Origin: Desulfocurvus sp.
GTDB taxonomy: Bacteria > Desulfobacterota > Desulfovibrionia > Desulfovibrionales > Desulfovibrionaceae
NCBI GenBank assembly: GCA_020692325.1
Contig: JAIMKR010000006.1
Location: forward strand, 67,933-131,932
Direction of reading: 5' to 3'
Length of the DNA stretch: 64,000 nt
In this document: positions 299-29,013 of the stretch, piece by piece
Numbering within the stretch: position 1 is the first letter of the stretch
Layout of the letters: each line of letters starts with the position of its first letter
Notes under the pieces: generated by a model
The model's input: the letters and a program-made list of their open reading frames with translations, nothing else
Told to the model about the DNA's origin: nothing
Database searches by the model: none
Translations under genes and position numbers: made by a program

Positions 299-1048
299 GT
301 GGCCACGTTCAAAATCCATCCCATCGTGATGGGCACGAAAATTTTCGATCATGGCATGATGACCTACCAGCACGCGTATGGCAAGCCGTACACCATTCCC
401 ATCTACAGCTGGTACCTGGAGGGCGGGGACAAGAAGATCCTCGTGGACACGGGCGAGATGAAGCCCATCATCAGCGCCGACCGCGAGGCGGCCATCGGCG
501 GCAAGATCCACACCTTCGAGGAGGGGCTGGCGCAATACGGCCTCAAGCCCGAGGACATCGACATCGTCGTGCACACGCACCTGCACAACGACCACTGCGA
601 GAACGATTACAAGTGCGTGAACGCGCGCATCTACGTGCACGAGGCGGAGCTCAAGCGCATTCACGACCCGCACCCGCTGGATTACCGCTATCTGGAGGAT
701 TACATCACCGACGTGGAGGAGAACGGCCAGGTCGTGGCGCTGAAGGGCGACGCGGAGATCGTTCCCGGCGTGCGCGTGGTGCACACCCCGGCCCACACCG
801 AGGGCGGCATGACCGTGCTCATCGACACGGAGAAGGGGCTCGCGGCCATCACGGGTTTCTGCATCATCATGGAGAACCTCTTCCCGCCCAAGGAAGTGCG
901 CGCCATGGAGATGGAGGTGATTCCCTGCGGCACGGTGGTGAACGCCTACCAGGCCTACGACAACATCCTCAGGGTGAAGAACATGGCGCAGATTCTGCTG
1001 CCGCTGCACGAGCCGCGCTTCGCCAGCACCCCGACCATACCGGAATAG
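299..1048 (+). CDS. Metallo-beta-lactamase-fold hydrolase, N-acyl-homoserine lactonase-like family
   Basis: HTHLHNDH (HxHxDH) motif, DTG, HTPAHT and terminal HEP motifs; GGAGG RBS. Confidence 0.85.
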   Translation: MATFKIHPIVMGTKIFDHGMMTYQHAYGKPYTIPIYSWYLEGGDKKILVDTGEMKPIISADREAAIGGKIHTFEEGLAQYGLKPEDIDIVVHTHLHNDHCENDYKCVNARIYVHEAELKRIHDPHPLDYRYLEDYITDVEENGQVVALKGDAEIVPGVRVVHTPAHTEGGMTVLIDTEKGLAAITGFCIIMENLFPPKEVRAMEMEVIPCGTVVNAYQAYDNILRVKNMAQILLPLHEPRFASTPTIPE

Positions 1049-1066
1049 GCCGCGCGGGCGGCGGAT

Positions 1067-1118
1067 ACGGGAACGGACGGCCGGGCTCTTCCGCACAAAG
1101 AGACCGGCCGTTTCCCGT
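1067..1118 (+). terminator. Stem-loop after the MBL gene
   Basis: acggga..acggccgg pairs with ccggccgtttcccgt. Confidence 0.45.
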
Positions 1119-1124
1119 GATCGG

Positions 1125-1153
1125 TTGACGCATCCGCCCCCAGCCTTTATGCT
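1125..1153 (+). promoter_or_regulatory. sigma70-type promoter for the DUF169 gene
   Basis: TTGACG (1125-1130), 17-nt spacer, TATGCT (1148-1153). Confidence 0.6.
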
Positions 1154-1215
1154 TGACCAAATACATTTGGCTTTCCGCCGGCTCCCGGCCCGGCCGGAAG
1201 CGAAAGGAGACCTCC

Positions 1216-1995
1216 ATGCCCGATTACGCCAAAATGCAGGAAACCCTCATGCGCGAGCTGCGGCTCATGCATTACCCCATCGCCATCAAATACTTTTTCG
1301 ACGAGGCCGAGCTGGCGGACTTCCGCAAGAACCATCCGCACTACGCGCCGGTGAAGCCGCTGACCTTCTGCCAGGCGGAGATCGGCGCGCGCATGGAGGG
1401 GCTGGCCGTGCTGGTGGAGAAAGAGAAGCTCGGCTGCACCAACGCCCAGTTCGTGCTGGGCTGGAAGGGCCTCGACGAGGGTGAGATCAAGAGCCACATG
1501 AAATACTGCAAGGACGCCGACCACGCCAAGCGCGTGCTGGAAGAGAAGCCCCGCCTGCCCGAGGACAAGCTGCTGGCCGTGGCGGTGATGCCGCTGGCCC
1601 AGGCCGAATCCACGCCCGACGTGGTGCATTTCTACTGCGACAACCTGCAGGCCTACCATCTCATCGGCGACTGGATGGCCAGCCAGAACCAGCCGCGCTT
1701 CCGCCCGTCCATGAGCGTGAACTCCGCGGCCTGCGGCGGCAACGTGTTCGTCTTCAACGAGAGGCAGGCCAACCTGTTCCTGGCGTGCAGCGGCAGCTAC
1801 AACTCCGGCAAGACCGAACGTGGCGAGATCAACGTCTCCATCCCCGGCGATCAGATGGAGGGCGTTATGGCGCGCATCGAAAAGCGCGTGGCCGACAAGG
1901 GCGGCGCGGCCATCACCCGTCTGGGCGCGGGCTTCCCCGGCGCGGACATCTGCAAGAACTGCCCGCTCATCGTGTTCAAGAAGGACGGCGAATAG
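1216..1995 (+). CDS. DUF169-family protein (Cys-rich, unknown function)
   Basis: P(I)AIK, FCQA..ARM, GCTNA, SAACG pattern; AAGGAGA RBS before ATG 1216; C-terminal CKNC. Confidence 0.7.
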   Translation: MPDYAKMQETLMRELRLMHYPIAIKYFFDEAELADFRKNHPHYAPVKPLTFCQAEIGARMEGLAVLVEKEKLGCTNAQFVLGWKGLDEGEIKSHMKYCKDADHAKRVLEEKPRLPEDKLLAVAVMPLAQAESTPDVVHFYCDNLQAYHLIGDWMASQNQPRFRPSMSVNSAACGGNVFVFNERQANLFLACSGSYNSGKTERGEINVSIPGDQMEGVMARIEKRVADKGGAAITRLGAGFPGADICKNCPLIVFKKDGE

Positions 1996-2081
1996 CCCGC
2001 TCCTCCACATTCCCACAAACGGAAATCGGCCGGCCTCCGCATGCGTGGGGACCGGCCGTCGTCGTTTCGATGCGCGGAAGG

Positions 2082-2360
2082 TTATTCGCCGGCCGGCGCG
2101 GGCTGATCGGGATGATGCTGATCCTGCGGCGCGTGCTGGCCATCACGCGGGGGGAGCTTGTGCTTGCCGGTCTTGTGCTCGCCCTTGGGGACGCGATGCG
2201 TGCCCGGCTTCATGTGCTCACCCTGCTTCATATGCTCGCCCTGCTTCATGGGCTCGCCCTGCTGGCCGCCGGGTGAACTGTCGGTTCCCTGCGCGAAAGC
2301 GCCGAGCGGCAGCAGCGTAAGCCCCAGCACGATGGTCAGACTCGCTTTGACATGCTTCAT
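2082..2360 (-). CDS. Small secreted His/Met-rich protein with hexapeptide repeats
   Basis: Signal peptide ending AFA; GEPMKQ-GEHMKQ-GEHMKP-GTHRVPK-GEHKTG repeats; GGAGG RBS. Confidence 0.7.
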   Translation of the reverse strand: MKHVKASLTIVLGLTLLPLGAFAQGTDSSPGGQQGEPMKQGEHMKQGEHMKPGTHRVPKGEHKTGKHKLPPRDGQHAPQDQHHPDQPAPAGE

Positions 2361-2524
2361 GGGAATTCCTCCAAGACTGGTTGGATGGTGAATGGTTCCC
2401 GAGAATCCAAATCACGATACCACGAGGAACGCCGCAGAACAAACGCAAGCGGCAAGATGCATGCGACCGGCCGAACCGGACCGCCAGCCTTGACGCGGCG
2501 GGGGAAAGCAGCCAAACAAGGAGC

Positions 2525-5500
2525 ATGATCCGGTGGATTGCGGCACGGTTCGGCGCGCCTGGGCGCACCACGCGCCGGAGCGGTCCGGCGCTTTTCGCCC
2601 ATGCCGCGCGAGGCGTGCGGCTGATCGCTCTCGCGCTGGCGCTGCTGGCGTGCTGCCAGACGCTCGCCCCGGTCCCGGCCCTGGCCGAGAAGCCCCGCAA
2701 AAACATCCTCTTTCTCAATTCCTACCACGACGGGTATGCTTGGTCCGACGAGATTCTGCGGGGCGTGCGCGCCTATTTCGCCGCGTCGCAGTTCGCGGTG
2801 GACCTGCAAATCGAGTACATGGACACCAAGCGCTTCGCCACGCCGGAGCGCGCCGAGGCCCTGTTCCGCTTCTACCGCGAGAAGTACCGGGACGCCCACT
2901 TCGACCTCATCATGGTCTCCGACGATTTCGCCTACAACTTCATCCTCGACCATCAGAACCGGCTGTTCCCGGGCCTGCCCGTGGTTTTCTGCGGCGTCAA
3001 CGACTTCCGGCCCGGGCGGCTTCTCGGCCGCACCAACATCACCGGCCTGGTGGAAAACGTGCACTTCGAGGACACGTTGCGACTGGCCGCGCGCCTGCAC
3101 CCCGGCTACCGGCACATGGTCGTCATCGGCGACCGCTCCGTCACCGGGCTGGCCATTCAGGGCCAGCTGCGCGCGGTGGCCCCGAGGGTGCGCGACGTGC
3201 TGGACCTGGAATTCTGGGACGACCTGCCCCTGACCGAGATTTTGCGCCGGCTGCGCGCGGAGCCGCGCAACACGCTGGTCTTCGTCATCCCCATGTACCT
3301 GGAGTACGAGGGCCAGCTGCTGGCCGCCGACGAGGTGCTGGAGGTGGTCTCGGCCAATGTGGACATTCCCGTGTACAGCTGCTGGCGCTTTCTGCTGGGC
3401 CACGGCTGCGTGGGCGGCCGGCTGCACGGAGGCGAGGAACACGGCCGCATCGCCGCCGGGCTGGCCCTGCGCATCCTGGCCGGGGCGGACCCCAAAACCA
3501 TCCCCGTGGTCCAGGTGTTCGACGACCCCTACGCCTTCGACTACGACGTGCTCAAAAAGCTGGGCATCCCCCTTTCCAGCCTGCCCCCCGGAGCGGAGCT
3601 CATCAACGAGCCCTATCGCTTCTACACCATCGACAAGGGCCTGTTCTGGACCATCATCATCAGCTTCGGCATCCTGGTGTTCATCCTGGTGCTGCTGCTG
3701 GCCAGCAACAGCCAGCGCCGGCGCATTCAGGAGCGCGTGAACGATCAGCTCTCGTTCCTCAAAATCCTGATGGACGCCATTCCCCTGCCGCTCTACACCC
3801 TGACGCGGCGCGGCCTGTTCCAGGACTGCAATCTGGCCTTCGAGCGGCTGTTCGGCGTGGACCGCGAGGCCATGGGCGACATGGGGCCGGAGACCATGGG
3901 CGTGGAGGGCCCCCCCGGCCTGCGCGACGAGGTGGACCACGAGCTGCTCGAAACCGCCGGCGTGCGCGTGTACGAATCGACCCTGCGCCTGCCGGGCGAT
4001 GACGCCCGCGACGTCATGGTCTCCAAGGCCACCTACCTCAATGCCAAGGGCGAAATTCTCGGTCTGGTCGGCGTGCTCAACGACATCACCGGTCTCAAGC
4101 GCGTGCAGGAGGAGCTCAAGCAGGCCGAGGAGAAGTACCGCGGCATTTTCGAGAACTCAGTGCTGGGCATATTCCGCGCCGATCCGTCCGGCGGCCTGCA
4201 CGACGCCAACCGCGCCCTGGTCGACATGCTGGGCTTTCCCGGACGCGACGAGCTGCTGGCCACCGGCTCCGCCTTCCTCACCGGGGCGGAGGCTCCGCCC
4301 TGGCCGCCGGACGCCAGCGGCCCCGGCGACGTGGCCGCCTATCGCCGCCAGTTCGTCCGGCCCGACGGCAGGCGCATCACCACATTCCTGCACATCCGCG
4401 CCGTGGCCGGGGCCGACGGCCGCATCGCCGCCTACGAGGGCGTGGTGGAGGACATCACCCAACGCGAGAACGCCGAGGTCGCCCTATCCAAAAGCGAACG
4501 GATGCTCCAGCTCGTGCTCGACACCATTCCCCAGCTCGTTTCCTGGAAGGACCGCGACCTGCACTACCTGGGCGTGAACCGCTCCTACGTCTCTTTCTTC
4601 GGCCTGGAGGACGCCCACCGGGCCCTGGGCCGCACGGACGAGGAGCTTTTCGGCGACGGCGACCCCACCCGCATGGCCCAGGCCGCCGACCGCGTGGTGC
4701 TGGCCAAGAACCAGCCGCAGTTCCGCGCCACCTGGGCCACGGAGGACGGTTTCGGCCGGCCGGTGCTGCTGGAGGTGAGCCGCGTGCCCCTGCACGACGC
4801 CGACGGTCAGGTGGTGGGCGTGATGTGCGCCGCCGAGGACGTGACCGAGAAGACCAGCCTGGAGCGCCAGCTGCTGCAATCGCAAAAGATGGAGGCCATC
4901 GGCACGCTGGCCGGCGGCATCGCCCACGACTTCAACAACATCCTCACCAGCATCATCAACAGCGCCGAGCTCGCCCTCCTGGACGCGCCCGAGGGCTCGG
5001 AAATCGCCCAGGACCTGCTGCGTGTGCTCCGAGCCGGTCAGCGCGGCAGCCAGCTCGTGCGGCAAATCCTGGCCTTCAGCCGGCCCTCCCAGGCCGGATT
5101 CCAGGCCGTGAACGTGGCCGAGGTGGCCCGCGACACGCTGAGCCTGCTCTCCGCCTCGCTGCCGCGCAACATCACCGTGCACGAGAACATCGCCGTGGAC
5201 CCGGCCATGGCCCAGGCCGACCCCATCCAGCTGCACCAGGTGCTGCTCAACCTGTGCACCAACGCCTTCCAGGCCATGCGCGAATCCGGCGGCGACCTCA
5301 CCGTGGCTCTCGAATCCGAAACCCTGGACGCGCCCGCCGCCGAGGCTCTCAACATCGCCCCGGGCCGCTACCTGCGCCTGTCCATCGCCGACACCGGTCC
5401 CGGCATCGAAATGGACCTGCTGGACAAGATCTTCGATCCCTTCTTCACCACCAAGGGCAAGGCCGAGGGCACCGGCTTGGGGCTGGCCGTGGTGCATGGC

Positions 5501-26105: not shown

Positions 26106-26208
26106 TGAAACTCCTTCGTGCGCGTTCAAAACGCCGTCGCGCGCCCGGACGGGCCTTGCCAGCGCGGGGTTCGGGCGGCTACTGTGCCGCGAAACCCTGG
26201 GGGCCGTC

Positions 26209-27510
26209 GTGACGCGCGTTTTCGTCTTGTGGGATGACTCGCACCTGTGGGGACTGCTCGTGCTGCGTTATTTGCGCGCGCTGGGCGTTCCCCACGGCGT
26301 TTTGCGTGCAATCGACATAGCCGAGGGCGCGCTCTCTGGCAAGTCCATGGCCCTTGGCCCGTCCCCGAAACACGACGCCCTGCTCATCGCCCCGGGTGGC
26401 TGGGCGCGCGGCAGGGCGCGGCGGCTGGGGCCGGTGGGGCTGGCGGCCGTGCGCGATTTCGTCGCTGGCGGCGGCGCGTACCTGGGATTCTGCGGCGGCG
26501 CGGGGCTGGCGCTTTCCGGCCCGAACCCGGCGGAAGGCCTTGGTCTGTGCCCGTGGGGCCGCATGGGCTTTTCCGGGCGGCTGCAACACCTGCTCTCCGG
26601 CGACGTGCGCCTGCGCGTCGAGGCGGAAAACGCCCCCGGAGGCGGCCGCGATCTGCTGGCGCAAGTGTGGTGGCCCTCGCAGTTCGCCCCGGCGGACGAC
26701 GACTCCGGCGTGGAGGTGCTGGCGCGCTACGACGGCCCGGGTCCGGACTTCTGGGTGGCCGACCTGGCGCTGGCCAGCCTGCCCGAGGAGGCGCTGGCCG
26801 ACTGGCAGAATCTTTACGGCCTCACCGTGCGGCCGGGCTTTCTGGCCGGCCGGCCGGCGGTCATCGCCGGGACATACGGCAAGGGCCGCTACCTGCTCTC
26901 CTACCCACACCTGGAGACGCCGGACTCGCCGGACGGCAACCGCTGGCTGGCGCGCATCGTCGCGGACATGGGCGGCGTGGTCCCGCCGGCCGCGGCGCTC
27001 GGCGCGGATTTCGTCACCCCGCCCTGGCGCGTGGGCGCGGAAGGCGTTCGCTGGGACGACGCGACGCTGCTCAAGGCCAAGGCCGAGCTGGAGGAGGTCG
27101 TCGCGCTGGGGCAGGAGCACCTGCTGCTGTTCTGGCGCAACCCGTGGCTGCTGGGCTGGCGGCGCGGGGTGCCGGGGCCGGGGCTGAACAGCCTGTATGC
27201 GCTGGTGTGCGAGGCGCTTTCGCACCCCCCCGACGAGGCGACGCTCTCCTGGTGGCGCGAGGTGGCCGATGAATTCGCCGGGCTGTCGAAGCTGCTGTGC
27301 AAGGGGCTCTCCGGCCTGCTGCTGGCCGAGCGGCTGGACATGACCGTGCGGCAAACCCCTGGCGTGGACGGCGCGGACGACGTGTTCACGAAAAATCTGC
27401 GCGAAATGCGCGCGGCGCTCTTCGGCCCTCCCCCGGCGGCCGGCGGCGTGTGCGGCCAGCTGCTCCACATGCTTGAGGAGCTGTGCGCGCGGCTGTGGGG
27501 GGGAACCTAA
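26209..27510 (+). CDS. BPL-N (biotin-protein-ligase N-terminal, class I GATase-like) domain protein
   Basis: PGG, GGAYLGFCGGAG nucleophile elbow, SYPHLE; start uncertain. Confidence 0.7.
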   Translation: MTRVFVLWDDSHLWGLLVLRYLRALGVPHGVLRAIDIAEGALSGKSMALGPSPKHDALLIAPGGWARGRARRLGPVGLAAVRDFVAGGGAYLGFCGGAGLALSGPNPAEGLGLCPWGRMGFSGRLQHLLSGDVRLRVEAENAPGGGRDLLAQVWWPSQFAPADDDSGVEVLARYDGPGPDFWVADLALASLPEEALADWQNLYGLTVRPGFLAGRPAVIAGTYGKGRYLLSYPHLETPDSPDGNRWLARIVADMGGVVPPAAALGADFVTPPWRVGAEGVRWDDATLLKAKAELEEVVALGQEHLLLFWRNPWLLGWRRGVPGPGLNSLYALVCEALSHPPDEATLSWWREVADEFAGLSKLLCKGLSGLLLAERLDMTVRQTPGVDGADDVFTKNLREMRAALFGPPPAAGGVCGQLLHMLEELCARLWGGT

Positions 27511-27512
27511 AA

Positions 27513-28241
27513 ATGAATAAGACTATCGAAGAAACGCAAAAAGGAAATAAACAGCTCGAACAATACCTCATCAAAATTTCATCAGACATTGTTATAGCGA
27601 GAAGTGCTCTTCATTACTGCTATTCGACAATGTCACCACAAAACTGTGGCCCATTCAAAAACTGCGTTTCAATGATACGCCATTTCGCAACTACAGCAAT
27701 GGCGATCCATTTATCTAGAGTTTTTGAAGTTCAAGTGGCTCGAAGCAAGAAAAATAGTGTTGACCAACCTTCATTTTCCATTATCAGCTTAGCAGATTTT
27801 TTAGCAAGCGCGAATATTAAAACGATGGTTGACTCTTTCTATAATTTATTAGACTACGTAAATGGCTATGATGACAAGTGCATCACCTGCATTCATGATA
27901 TCCCACATCATATGAGCGAAGACTGCCTATTTTGTTTACCAAGACGACTTGGAAGTATTACAAAGAGAAGATGTGCCGAGGCCAATGAATTAGTAACAAA
28001 GGTAAAAAAATTCAGAAATAAGTGGGTCGCCCACACAGAAATGCCAACCAAAGCCATCCCAACGACATACGCCGATTTTGAATTACTAACGAATCTTGCC
28101 GAAGATCTGCTCTTCCCCTTTTCGCGGTATTTCCCAACAGCCCATTGCTCTTATTATTATGATGTTGTTGAACAGAAACAAGCAACTCAGTTTAGCAAAG
28201 AGCTAGAGAATCTATTTGCCTCGTTAGCTCTGAGTAAATAG
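27513..28241 (+). CDS. AT-rich HEPN-domain protein, AbiU2-like; putative RNase/defence gene
   Basis: KFRNKWVAH (RxxxxH at 28014-28034) in a helical protein; earlier LSRVFE..ISL..L pattern; two 60-nt lines counted by hand are 33% GC, far below the flanking DNA. Confidence 0.7.
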   Translation: MNKTIEETQKGNKQLEQYLIKISSDIVIARSALHYCYSTMSPQNCGPFKNCVSMIRHFATTAMAIHLSRVFEVQVARSKKNSVDQPSFSIISLADFLASANIKTMVDSFYNLLDYVNGYDDKCITCIHDIPHHMSEDCLFCLPRRLGSITKRRCAEANELVTKVKKFRNKWVAHTEMPTKAIPTTYADFELLTNLAEDLLFPFSRYFPTAHCSYYYDVVEQKQATQFSKELENLFASLALSK

Positions 28242-28278
28242 CAACATTTTGACATACCAAGATTTACACCTACCGGCC

Positions 28279-28324
28279 CGGCGGGACGACCCGCCGTCGA
28301 CCCGCCGCAATGGGGACGACCCCG
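28279..28324 (+). ncRNA. Guanidine-II (mini-ykkC) riboswitch
   Basis: Two hairpins with ACGA loops: cggcggg-ACGA-cccgccg (28279-28296) and gggg-ACGA-cccc (28312-28323), directly upstream of an SMR exporter. Confidence 0.9.
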
Positions 28325-28345: not shown

Positions 28346-28663
28346 ATGTCCTGGATATATCTCTTGGTGGCCGGCCTCTTCGAGGTCGCCTGGGCCGTCG
28401 GCCTCAAGTCCACCCACGGCTTCACCCGCCCGCTGCCCTCACTGTTCTTGGGGGGCGCCATGCTCGCCAGCGTGGGCCTGCTCTCGCTCGCCGTGCGTGA
28501 TCTGCCCATTGGCACGGCCTACGCCGTGTGGACGGGCATTGGCACCCTGGGCGCGGCCGCGTTTGGCATGGTCTTCCTCGGCGAACCAGCCGGGGCGGCG
28601 CGTCTGGGCTGCATCGCCCTCATCGCGGCGGGCATCGCCGGCCTCAAGCTCTTGCCGGCCTAA
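28346..28663 (+). CDS. sugE: SMR-family guanidinium exporter (Gdx/SugE)
   Basis: [33 protein letters not shown], four TM helices; guanidine-II riboswitch upstream. Confidence 0.92.
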
Positions 28664-28746: not shown

Positions 28747-29013
28747 TTAGTAGCGGCGGGGCGGGCGGGGAGCGCGCTCCTTGGCTTCGTTGACCCGCAG
28801 CGTGCGGCCTCCGAAGTCTTTGCCGTCCAGGGCCTCGATGGCCTTGGCGGCGCCGGCGTCCTCCATCTCCACGAAACCGAAGCCGCGAAAACGGCCGGTC
28901 TCGCGGTCCATGACGAATTTCACGTTCTGCACCTCGCCGTAAGAGCCGAACGCATCGCGAATTTCATCTTCCTTGGCGCTGAAAGGCAAATTACCGACGT
29001 AGATGGACTTCAT
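28747..29013 (-). CDS. RRM-type RNA-binding protein
   Basis: IYVGNL (RNP2) and RGFGFVEM (RNP1). Confidence 0.95.
   Translation of the reverse strand: MKSIYVGNLPFSAKEDEIRDAFGSYGEVQNVKFVMDRETGRFRGFGFVEMEDAGAAKAIEALDGKDFGGRTLRVNEAKERAPRPPRRY

Follow-up and report, generated by a model that had tools for sequence, protein, structure and literature searches.

We analysed a 64 kb window of DNA (64,000 nucleotides (nt); positions 67,933 to 131,932 of contig JAIMKR010000006.1, assembly GCA_020692325.1) from Desulfocurvus sp., a Desulfovibrio-like bacterium, and found in it a lone AT-rich gene whose product is probably a divergent HEPN_AbiU2 protein, specific to one clade and acting as a single-gene RNase effector of abortive infection or toxicity. 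The gene occupies a slot between a core gene for a BPL_N-like protein and the riboswitch–sugE and RRM genes, and this slot is a hypervariable hotspot without an integrase.

The window has a GC content of 67 %, and the genus lies at about 67–70 %. GC content in 200 nt windows falls from 0.72 (27300–27499) to 0.36–0.41 (27500–28199) and has returned to 0.68 by 28300, making this the only stretch of at least 400 nt with less than 50 % GC in the window. Its single open reading frame (ORF), P0001, lies on the plus strand at 27513–28241 and encodes 242 aa. The ATG at 27513 follows the TAA stop of the BPL_N-like gene (27508–27510) after a gap of 2 nt, and the TAG stop is at 28239–28241. The GC content of the gene is 0.388, compared with about 70 % in the flanks, and its GC at third codon positions (GC3) is 0.37, compared with 0.89 in both neighbouring genes. 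In blastn comparisons with the related loci L015, L017, L018, L019, L020 and L040, homology is lost at 27498–27503 and resumes at 28271–28273; across the seven related loci compared, the non-homologous segment runs from about 27500/27504 to 28270. We refer to the variable AT-rich segment at 27504–28270 (GC about 0.39–0.40) as the island. No integrase, insertion sequence end, flanking direct repeat or inverted repeat was found. The island is thus distinct from an integron cassette (no attC site or inverted repeat at the border, no integrase), from an integrase-mobilized island (no recombinase gene with att repeats at the borders) and from an HEPN–MNT toxin–antitoxin pair (one ORF, with the core BPL_N gene and the riboswitch–sugE unit as neighbours). 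The initial annotation, made from the letters of the sequence, had described a 242 aa ORF 2 nt past the BPL_N stop, a sharp drop in GC at that stop with recovery before a guanidine-II riboswitch, and a lone gene with no antitoxin or MNT partner, integrase or insertion sequence. The coordinates, the GC windows, inspection of the ORFs, the search for border repeats and an Rfam match (RF01068) above the gathering score all bear this description out, and the bounds it gave (27509–28275) agree almost exactly with those of the locus comparison.

The window protein is well supported, at the level of sequence profiles, as part of a divergent subfamily of the HEPN_AbiU2 family, because its clade matches PF18734 and the clade profile aligns with that of canonical AbiU2 proteins. 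On its own the window protein matches PF18734 with 21.0 bits (E 2.6e-4), over residues 137–200 only; PF18734 is nevertheless the top family for all six clade members, with a best E value of 2.5e-8. We aligned the six distinct alleles of the clade (A1) and, separately, nine canonical AbiU2 proteins above the PF18734 cut-off, collected from 301 genomes of the same class (A2). Comparison of A1 with A2 by hhalign gave a probability of 95.1 % (E 3.3e-8) over 181 aligned columns. The signature R[ND]Kxx[A]H occurs in eight of the nine canonical proteins, the ninth having RDKLAH (Rx4H), and a [KR]-h-[FY]-[ED] signature at the end of the second long helix is common to canonical AbiU2 proteins and the clade. 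Across the 15 AbiU2-type sequences, R168 is the sole invariant column, and conservation of H174 is 90 % or more.

Within the clade, the invariant residues in A1 are H57, T60, A64, R69, F71, C123, C126, C138, C141, C154, F167, R168, W171, V172, A173 and H174. HEPN domains are defined by an Rx4-6H motif with a polar residue (N, D or H) directly after the arginine (PMC3710099), a description that the window protein satisfies with R168-N169-K-W-V-A-H174 (28014–28034, plus strand; a predicted RNase motif within KFRNKWVAH, residues 166–174). The arginine and histidine are separated by five residues, of which three are invariant in the clade together with the R and H themselves, and residue 169 is N or D. 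HEPN helix 2 carries a conserved acidic residue, often as Ex3[KR] (PMC3710099). The candidate for this residue is E72 (D in one allele), which follows the invariant R69 and F71 in R69-V-F-E72 (27717–27728, plus strand), at the end of predicted helix 2, in a form that differs from Ex3[KR].

The clade also carries a Cys4 element, C123-ITC126-x11-C138-LFC141 (27879–27935, plus strand), a putative metal knuckle that is invariant in all six members. None of the nine canonical AbiU2 proteins has paired CxxC motifs; in L071, one CxxC aligns with C123/C126. Both the Cys4 and the Rx5H motifs are kept down to 27 % protein identity. Table 1 of PMC3710099 lists, for a different HEPN family, zinc ribbons fused to HEPN domains. 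The Cys4 knuckle is an addition specific to the clade and sits in the insert between HEPN helices 2 and 3, which is known to vary. The initial annotation had proposed an AbiU2-like HEPN protein with a CITC-x11-CLFC insert and an RxxxxH active site in KFRNKWVAH. The family, the insert and the position of the motif (28014–28034) hold; the spacing does not, being R-x5-H, which is still within Rx4-6H (PMC3710099), and it is in this form that R168 and H174 are conserved among the homologues.

Two AlphaFold2 models, built from 6-sequence and 15-sequence alignments (mean predicted local confidence, pLDDT, 76.9 and 82.6; predicted template modelling score, pTM, 0.79 and 0.83), are both all-helical, with helices at 3–38, 42–71, 142–156, 158–173 and 186–206 and a C-terminal pair. 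The insert (72–141), between helix 42–71 and the helical stretch 142–173, is the less confident part, and the Cys4 element lies inside it, in the lowest region (pLDDT 51–57). R168 is placed in the last turn of helix 158–173 (158–172 in one model) and H174 in the following loop; in these predictions the arrangement matches the helix-end and loop positions described for HEPN domains (PMC3710099).

Several observations count against an AbiU2-type effector. Taken alone, the window protein scores under the Pfam gathering threshold (21.0 against 26.8 bits), and it has no match among the PADLOC, PHROGs and NCBIfam models. Foldseek searches of the PDB reached E values no better than 0.27 and 0.18 with the two models, at template modelling scores of about 0.2 and with no HEPN chain in the top 50, and a search of BFVD with the first model gave no significant match (best E 0.087). 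No match to a non-HEPN fold surfaced in these searches either. By sequence, the PDB returned nothing for the window protein or the clade profile and only chance-level matches for the canonical AbiU2 profile, so that no AbiU2-family structure was detected there by sequence profile. Because Foldseek gave no significant match, the HEPN fold is inferred from sequence profiles and motif placement, and not confirmed structurally; the comparison with HEPN folds suggested by the initial annotation came out in favour by hhalign (95.1 % to AbiU2) but not by Foldseek. In addition, a free HEPN RNase without an antitoxin needs some other restraint. Finally, in the founding system of Lactococcus, AbiUi is protective by itself and protection was lowered by the HEPN protein AbiUii (PMC13064643), so that family membership by itself does not imply defence.

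Searches for relatives led back to the same place. Two relatives came from a word-indexed search of 5.8 billion clusters; an exhaustive HMMER search of 1.84 billion representative proteins gave six matches, five of them in the family, three being fragments or a spurious repeat protein. The sole match in the genome collection was a metagenome-assembled genome (MAG) of the same genus, and IMG/VR viral contigs, phage records and plasmid records yielded no relative. Together, the reservoirs searched (proteins, clusters, IMG/VR viral contigs, JGI metagenome contigs, GTDB, phage and plasmid records) gave only same-slot alleles and one unplaced allele. Five of the six alleles lie in the same slot, in the common order valyl-tRNA synthetase (ValRS), BPL_N, HEPN, riboswitch–sugE, RRM. 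They comprise, besides the window protein, P0002 (65 % identical to it; its 3 kb contig ends in the riboswitch and shows the ValRS-side gene, BPL_N and riboswitch only), P0003 (57–59 %), the allele of G021 (37–41 %; MAG Desulfovibrio sp. NC_groundwater_1668) and P0005 (30 %). The most distant allele, P0006 (28 % identity, GC 0.52, GC3 0.60), keeps the Cys4 and Rx5H motifs; it lies at 231–944 of a 1.15 kb Logan SRR22388203 contig (L044) with no BPL_N coding sequence upstream, and may be the sole family member outside the slot.

These alleles indicate a real coding gene under purifying selection, since dN/dS for the closest pair, the window allele and P0002, is about 0.18 (dN 0.233, dS 1.33). 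That the ORF might be a chance reading frame in an AT-rich spacer, or a decaying remnant, had been suggested by its very poor codon adaptation and by the lack of a family match of its own above threshold. Intact full-length orthologues in at least five lineages, the invariant motifs, the dN/dS value and a confident AlphaFold2 model (pTM 0.83) all speak to the contrary, and the conservation data already effectively refute this idea, to which we give virtually no credence.

The gene family is also old at the locus, its alleles either predating the splits between hosts or having been swapped among species. Synonymous sites of the HEPN gene are saturated, with a proportion of synonymous differences of 0.62–0.91, whereas dS of BPL_N in the same genome pairs is 0.16–0.69 (Nei–Gojobori). 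Loci L001 and L040 are 93.4 % identical in nucleotide sequence over the left flank (4.4 kb) and 97.0 % over the right flank (1.2 kb), yet their HEPN alleles have 35 % protein identity and no detectable nucleotide similarity. In a tree of BPL_N the HEPN carriers are scattered: the window groups with G011, which has a different cargo gene, the P0002 host groups with G014, which has an empty slot, and P0003 and P0005 have sister hosts. The window locus also occurs, at 99.98–100 % identity, in four other assemblies, which are hence uninformative on polymorphism within the strain.

The gene had initially been described as recently acquired. This does not hold, because five or more lineages have alleles 30–65 % identical to one another in this slot, with saturated synonymous sites, dN/dS of about 0.18 and alleles of 35 % identity in near-identical backgrounds. 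A version in which the gene came recently from an AT-rich donor, such as a phage, a plasmid or another phylum, by inserting independently at this hotspot in several species, would account for the absence of amelioration (GC3 0.37 against 0.89), for the scatter of carriers on the host tree and for the AT-richness of other slot cargo. Setting aside the context of P0006, however, no relative was found outside the slot among the 1.84 billion proteins or the viral contig, phage and plasmid records. The window, P0002 and P0003 alleles moreover share continuous nucleotide homology of about 73 % over flank and gene, their divergence in the HEPN gene (dN 0.23–0.30) being of the same order as that in BPL_N (0.19), and we consider recent arrival very unlikely. 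It is unusual that a gene which is not recent should show persistent AT-richness with no GC amelioration at all: the five slot alleles have GC of 0.39–0.43 and GC3 of 0.36–0.47, and their neighbours have GC of 0.70 and GC3 of 0.80–0.89.

A survey of the interval after the BPL_N gene in 22 representative genomes of the genus showed how variable the slot is. The HEPN gene is present in two (G000 and G021). The slot is empty in G014, G009 and G001, where the BPL_N stop lies 125–142 bp from sugE with the riboswitch between them, and also in G016; sister species thus have the BPL_N gene followed directly by riboswitch–sugE, the arrangement that the initial annotation had named as confirmation of an insertion. 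In other genomes the slot holds recognised anti-phage genes. G010 has an AbiV gene (opposite strand, GC 0.40, PF18728 E 7.6e-18, PADLOC AbiV). G006 encodes a 424 aa radical SAM protein (L058, G006:C117:800-6800, 230–1504; GC 0.41) that matches PADLOC models of prokaryotic viperins (E 3e-23). G017 carries an AT-rich NACHT/STAND NTPase (L062, G017:C12:35900-41900, 147–2030; E 4e-8) in two ORFs of 284 and 341 aa, which represent either a split gene or a frameshift. The claim of an undescribed defence gene therefore stands in part: the defence context is supported by the AbiV, viperin-like and NACHT genes that sister species have in this slot, but the gene is a divergent subfamily of a described family and not of an undescribed kind. 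The viperin-like protein is extended by about 95 aa at its N-terminus, and its C-terminal tail is rich in cysteine. G010 also has a canonical AbiU2 gene at an unrelated locus (L072, G010:C3:97267-97833; RNKLVAH, GC 0.40 against a background of 0.59).

Other slot contents are less readily classified. G012 has a gene for an HSDR_N-domain protein, and AT-rich ORFs with no Pfam or PADLOC match encode 174 aa in G011 (L017), 206 aa in G015 (L056), 412–433 aa in G007 (L057) and 129 and 142 aa in G008 and G004 (L028 and L064); by association, these are candidates for defence genes. The 412 aa protein of G007 ends in RSAHFH, an Rx4H-like motif. G013, G002 and G003 (L022, L023 and L055) carry a GC-rich gene for a cytidine/dCMP-deaminase-like protein with a signal peptide (PF00383 E 9e-21). 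This protein also matches a MafB19-like deaminase, and its composition is host-like, unlike that of the other cargo.

In several genomes the riboswitch–sugE unit is missing, so that the variable region reaches the RRM gene. G020 (L061, G020:C41:12560-18560) is arranged differently: sugE adjoins BPL_N and is followed by a second copy of the BPL_N 3′ end (about 544–681; the last 45 or so codons, 56 % identical to residues 396–441) and then by cargo (700–3000) before the RRM gene. The cargo includes about 1.8 kb of AT-rich DNA, with a 432 aa ORF (weak LysM match, GC 0.54) and two AT-rich ORFs of about 155 aa of no recognised family. This duplicate suggests that cargo is moved together with the 3′ end of BPL_N, which would serve as its homology arm. 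Since neither border repeats nor a recombinase were found in the window, we propose homologous recombination through the conserved flanks as the simplest explanation for the exchange of cargo and alleles.

The arrangement of the genes offers a route to expression. The island is little more than a bare ORF, with 2 nt before the ATG and about 29 nt from the stop codon to the point where homology resumes. A G-rich, Shine–Dalgarno-like run is present in the last BPL_N codons, and no terminator-like site was found on the plus strand between the BPL_N and HEPN genes. In four of five alleles the HEPN start lies between a 14 nt overlap with the BPL_N stop and a 2 nt gap from it (ORF overlaps of 14 nt in P0002 and 8 nt in P0003); in P0005, an in-frame upstream ATG 2 nt past the BPL_N stop restores the conserved N-terminus. 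Slot cargo is co-oriented with BPL_N throughout, AbiV excepted. Co-transcription with the BPL_N gene, as the initial annotation had proposed, is plausible given these tight or overlapping junctions. The codon adaptation index of the HEPN gene is 0.22, compared with 0.49–0.83 (median 0.67) in 34 reference ORFs, and rare codons make up 29 % of it, compared with about 2 % in the reference ORFs; low, coupled expression could keep a lone nuclease tolerable. Strong sigma-70-like promoter matches within the HEPN ORF, at 27817–27845 on the plus strand (10/12) and 27807–27780 on the minus strand (9/12), are probably by-products of AT-rich composition.

HEPN domains are common as toxins of toxin–antitoxin systems (PMC3710099), and the gene could instead encode a toxin, selfish or addictive, or serve in conflict between bacteria, with no anti-phage role. 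Its product would then be a HEPN RNase restrained by a small antisense RNA, an unlinked antitoxin or low expression alone, and the gene would persist through the cost of its loss or by hitch-hiking on recombination. It stands alone, without a partner, and its AT-rich body has promoter-like sites on both strands, including that at 27807–27780 on the minus strand; allele divergence this deep is in keeping with any kind of conflict-driven evolution. We consider this unlikely, however. Such promoter-like sites can be expected wherever DNA is AT-rich, the alleles share no conserved antitoxin-like ORF, and the same slot holds the recognised anti-phage genes AbiV, viperin-like and NACHT. The gene is also easily lost, as the four empty sites and its presence in 2 of 22 genus representatives attest.

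The tight coupling to the BPL_N gene in four of five alleles bears on a further proposal, that the protein is a non-catalytic or regulatory HEPN-like protein, either a modulator of another system or an RNA- or metal-binding accessory of the BPL_N-like protein. The conserved Cys4 and C154 residues point to a role that depends on metal, the structure searches matched no HEPN RNase, and AbiUii lowered AbiUi-mediated resistance in Lactococcus (PMC13064643). Yet the invariance of R168, H174 and their neighbours at 27–30 % identity is the pattern of a catalytic site, and no AbiUi-like nuclease partner is adjacent. We rejected the BPL_N-like protein as a dedicated partner, as its gene is universal across the order but only 2 of 22 genus representatives have the HEPN gene, and a regulatory role as a whole seems to us decidedly unlikely.

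Our data thus favour a single-gene AbiU2-type effector, which might work as follows. The protein would be a HEPN endoribonuclease that needs no metal, probably forms a dimer and, after an infection trigger, cuts RNA of the host or the phage. Its Cys4 knuckle, probably zinc-binding, may help to bind RNA or the trigger, or may merely stabilize the insert. As the island has no room for a promoter of its own, the gene would be transcribed by read-through from the BPL_N gene, probably with translational coupling, and the extreme codon mismatch to the host would hold the protein level low. Alleles and alternative cargo would pass between species by homologous recombination through the flanks, without a dedicated recombinase. 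A bolder form of this model is possible but doubtful: the alleles would be ancient, balanced and bound to the slot in the manner of idiomorphs, selection would maintain the 39 % GC and the rare codons, codon mismatch and coupling would take the place of an antitoxin, and the Cys4 element (binding zinc, or iron in an anaerobe) would act as the sensor of the trigger.

The HEPN_AbiU2 family is typified by AbiUii/AbiU2 of Lactococcus lactis, and Anantharaman et al. 2013 (PMC3710099) defined it as a HEPN family. Like other members (PF18734), the window protein falls in the range of about 200–280 aa, is predicted to be all-helical and bears the R-[ND]-K-x-x-A-H and [KR]-h-[FY]-[ED] signatures; canonical members in GC-rich hosts, like those of the clade, are AT-rich lone genes. 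The clade differs from them in its invariant CxxC-x11-CxxC and C154, and the window protein in its sub-threshold score for PF18734. Unlike the contexts given for the family in PMC3710099, the window gene is not beside genes for an AbiUi-type nuclease or Sel1-repeat protein or restriction–modification genes, and unlike the family at large, nearly all known members of the Cys4 clade come from one chromosomal slot in one genus. A parallel by description is the integron cassette HNPBCG_15845 of Vibrio mimicus MB461, a stand-alone HEPN AbiU2 domain reported to protect against T4 and T7 (bioRxiv 10.64898/2026.03.17.712381). Both are single, small, partnerless AbiU2-type genes; the cassette is promoterless and expressed from upstream, as the window gene probably is, but the window island has no attC site or integron.

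Single-gene HEPN abortive-infection effectors also include AbiV (PF18728), AbiD/F and AbiJ. These belong to different HEPN families; AbiV nonetheless occupies the same slot in G010, albeit on the opposite strand. AbiV is reported to be an RNase that probably degrades rRNA (PMC13064643), and it typically lacks the histidine of Rx4-6H and uses an alternative one (PMC3710099). Defence hotspots flanked by core genes are established, an example being the core defence hotspots (cDHS) of Pseudomonas aeruginosa. As described in PMC10250203, these resemble our slot in having a fixed position between core genes, defence genes that differ among strains or species and no integrase in the slot. Our slot is tiny by comparison, mostly holding single promoterless genes of 0.5–2 kb, and its contents differ both among species of one genus and within near-identical backgrounds.

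What is unusual here is that the whole placed clade sits in one slot of one genus, and that its alleles diverge deeply in near-identical backgrounds. The clade adds a distinct branch, with a putative metal knuckle, to the AbiU2 HEPN family, for which no structure has been solved and a single stand-alone member has been reported as protective. The slot itself is a compact, integrase-free chromosomal hotspot in environmental sulfate reducers, with at least nine alternative contents, several of them without a recognised family. Together they provide a natural case for how lone HEPN nucleases stay harmless without an antitoxin, and for why defence genes remain AT-rich in GC-rich genomes when they are not recent arrivals. 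Current views are not overturned by this work, and the HEPN gene is a good but unsurprising defence candidate.

The neighbouring genes form the anchors of the slot. On the left, the BPL_N-like gene (26179–27510, plus strand; PF09825 E 2e-8) has an approximate start codon, its ORF being open from 26050, and was present in all 25 relatives searched across the order. On the right, the guanidine-II (mini-ykkC) riboswitch (28278–28324, plus strand; RF01068, 37.6 bits against a gathering score of 32) precedes a sugE/SMR gene of the guanidinium-exporter type (28346–28663, plus strand; PF00893 E 1e-25). The outer right anchor is a gene for an RRM-domain RNA-binding protein (28747–29013, minus strand), convergent with the sugE side of the locus; it has 91–95 % protein identity across the genus, with PF00076 matched in related loci. 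A TTGACA hexamer starts 7 nt past the HEPN stop, forming TTGACA-N16-TACCGG (28249–28276, plus strand), which a scan for consensus promoters did not call. This element, kept 3′ of the island, is probably the sugE promoter, because empty sites have a similar one, TTGACA-N17-TACCGC, at the same place relative to the riboswitch.

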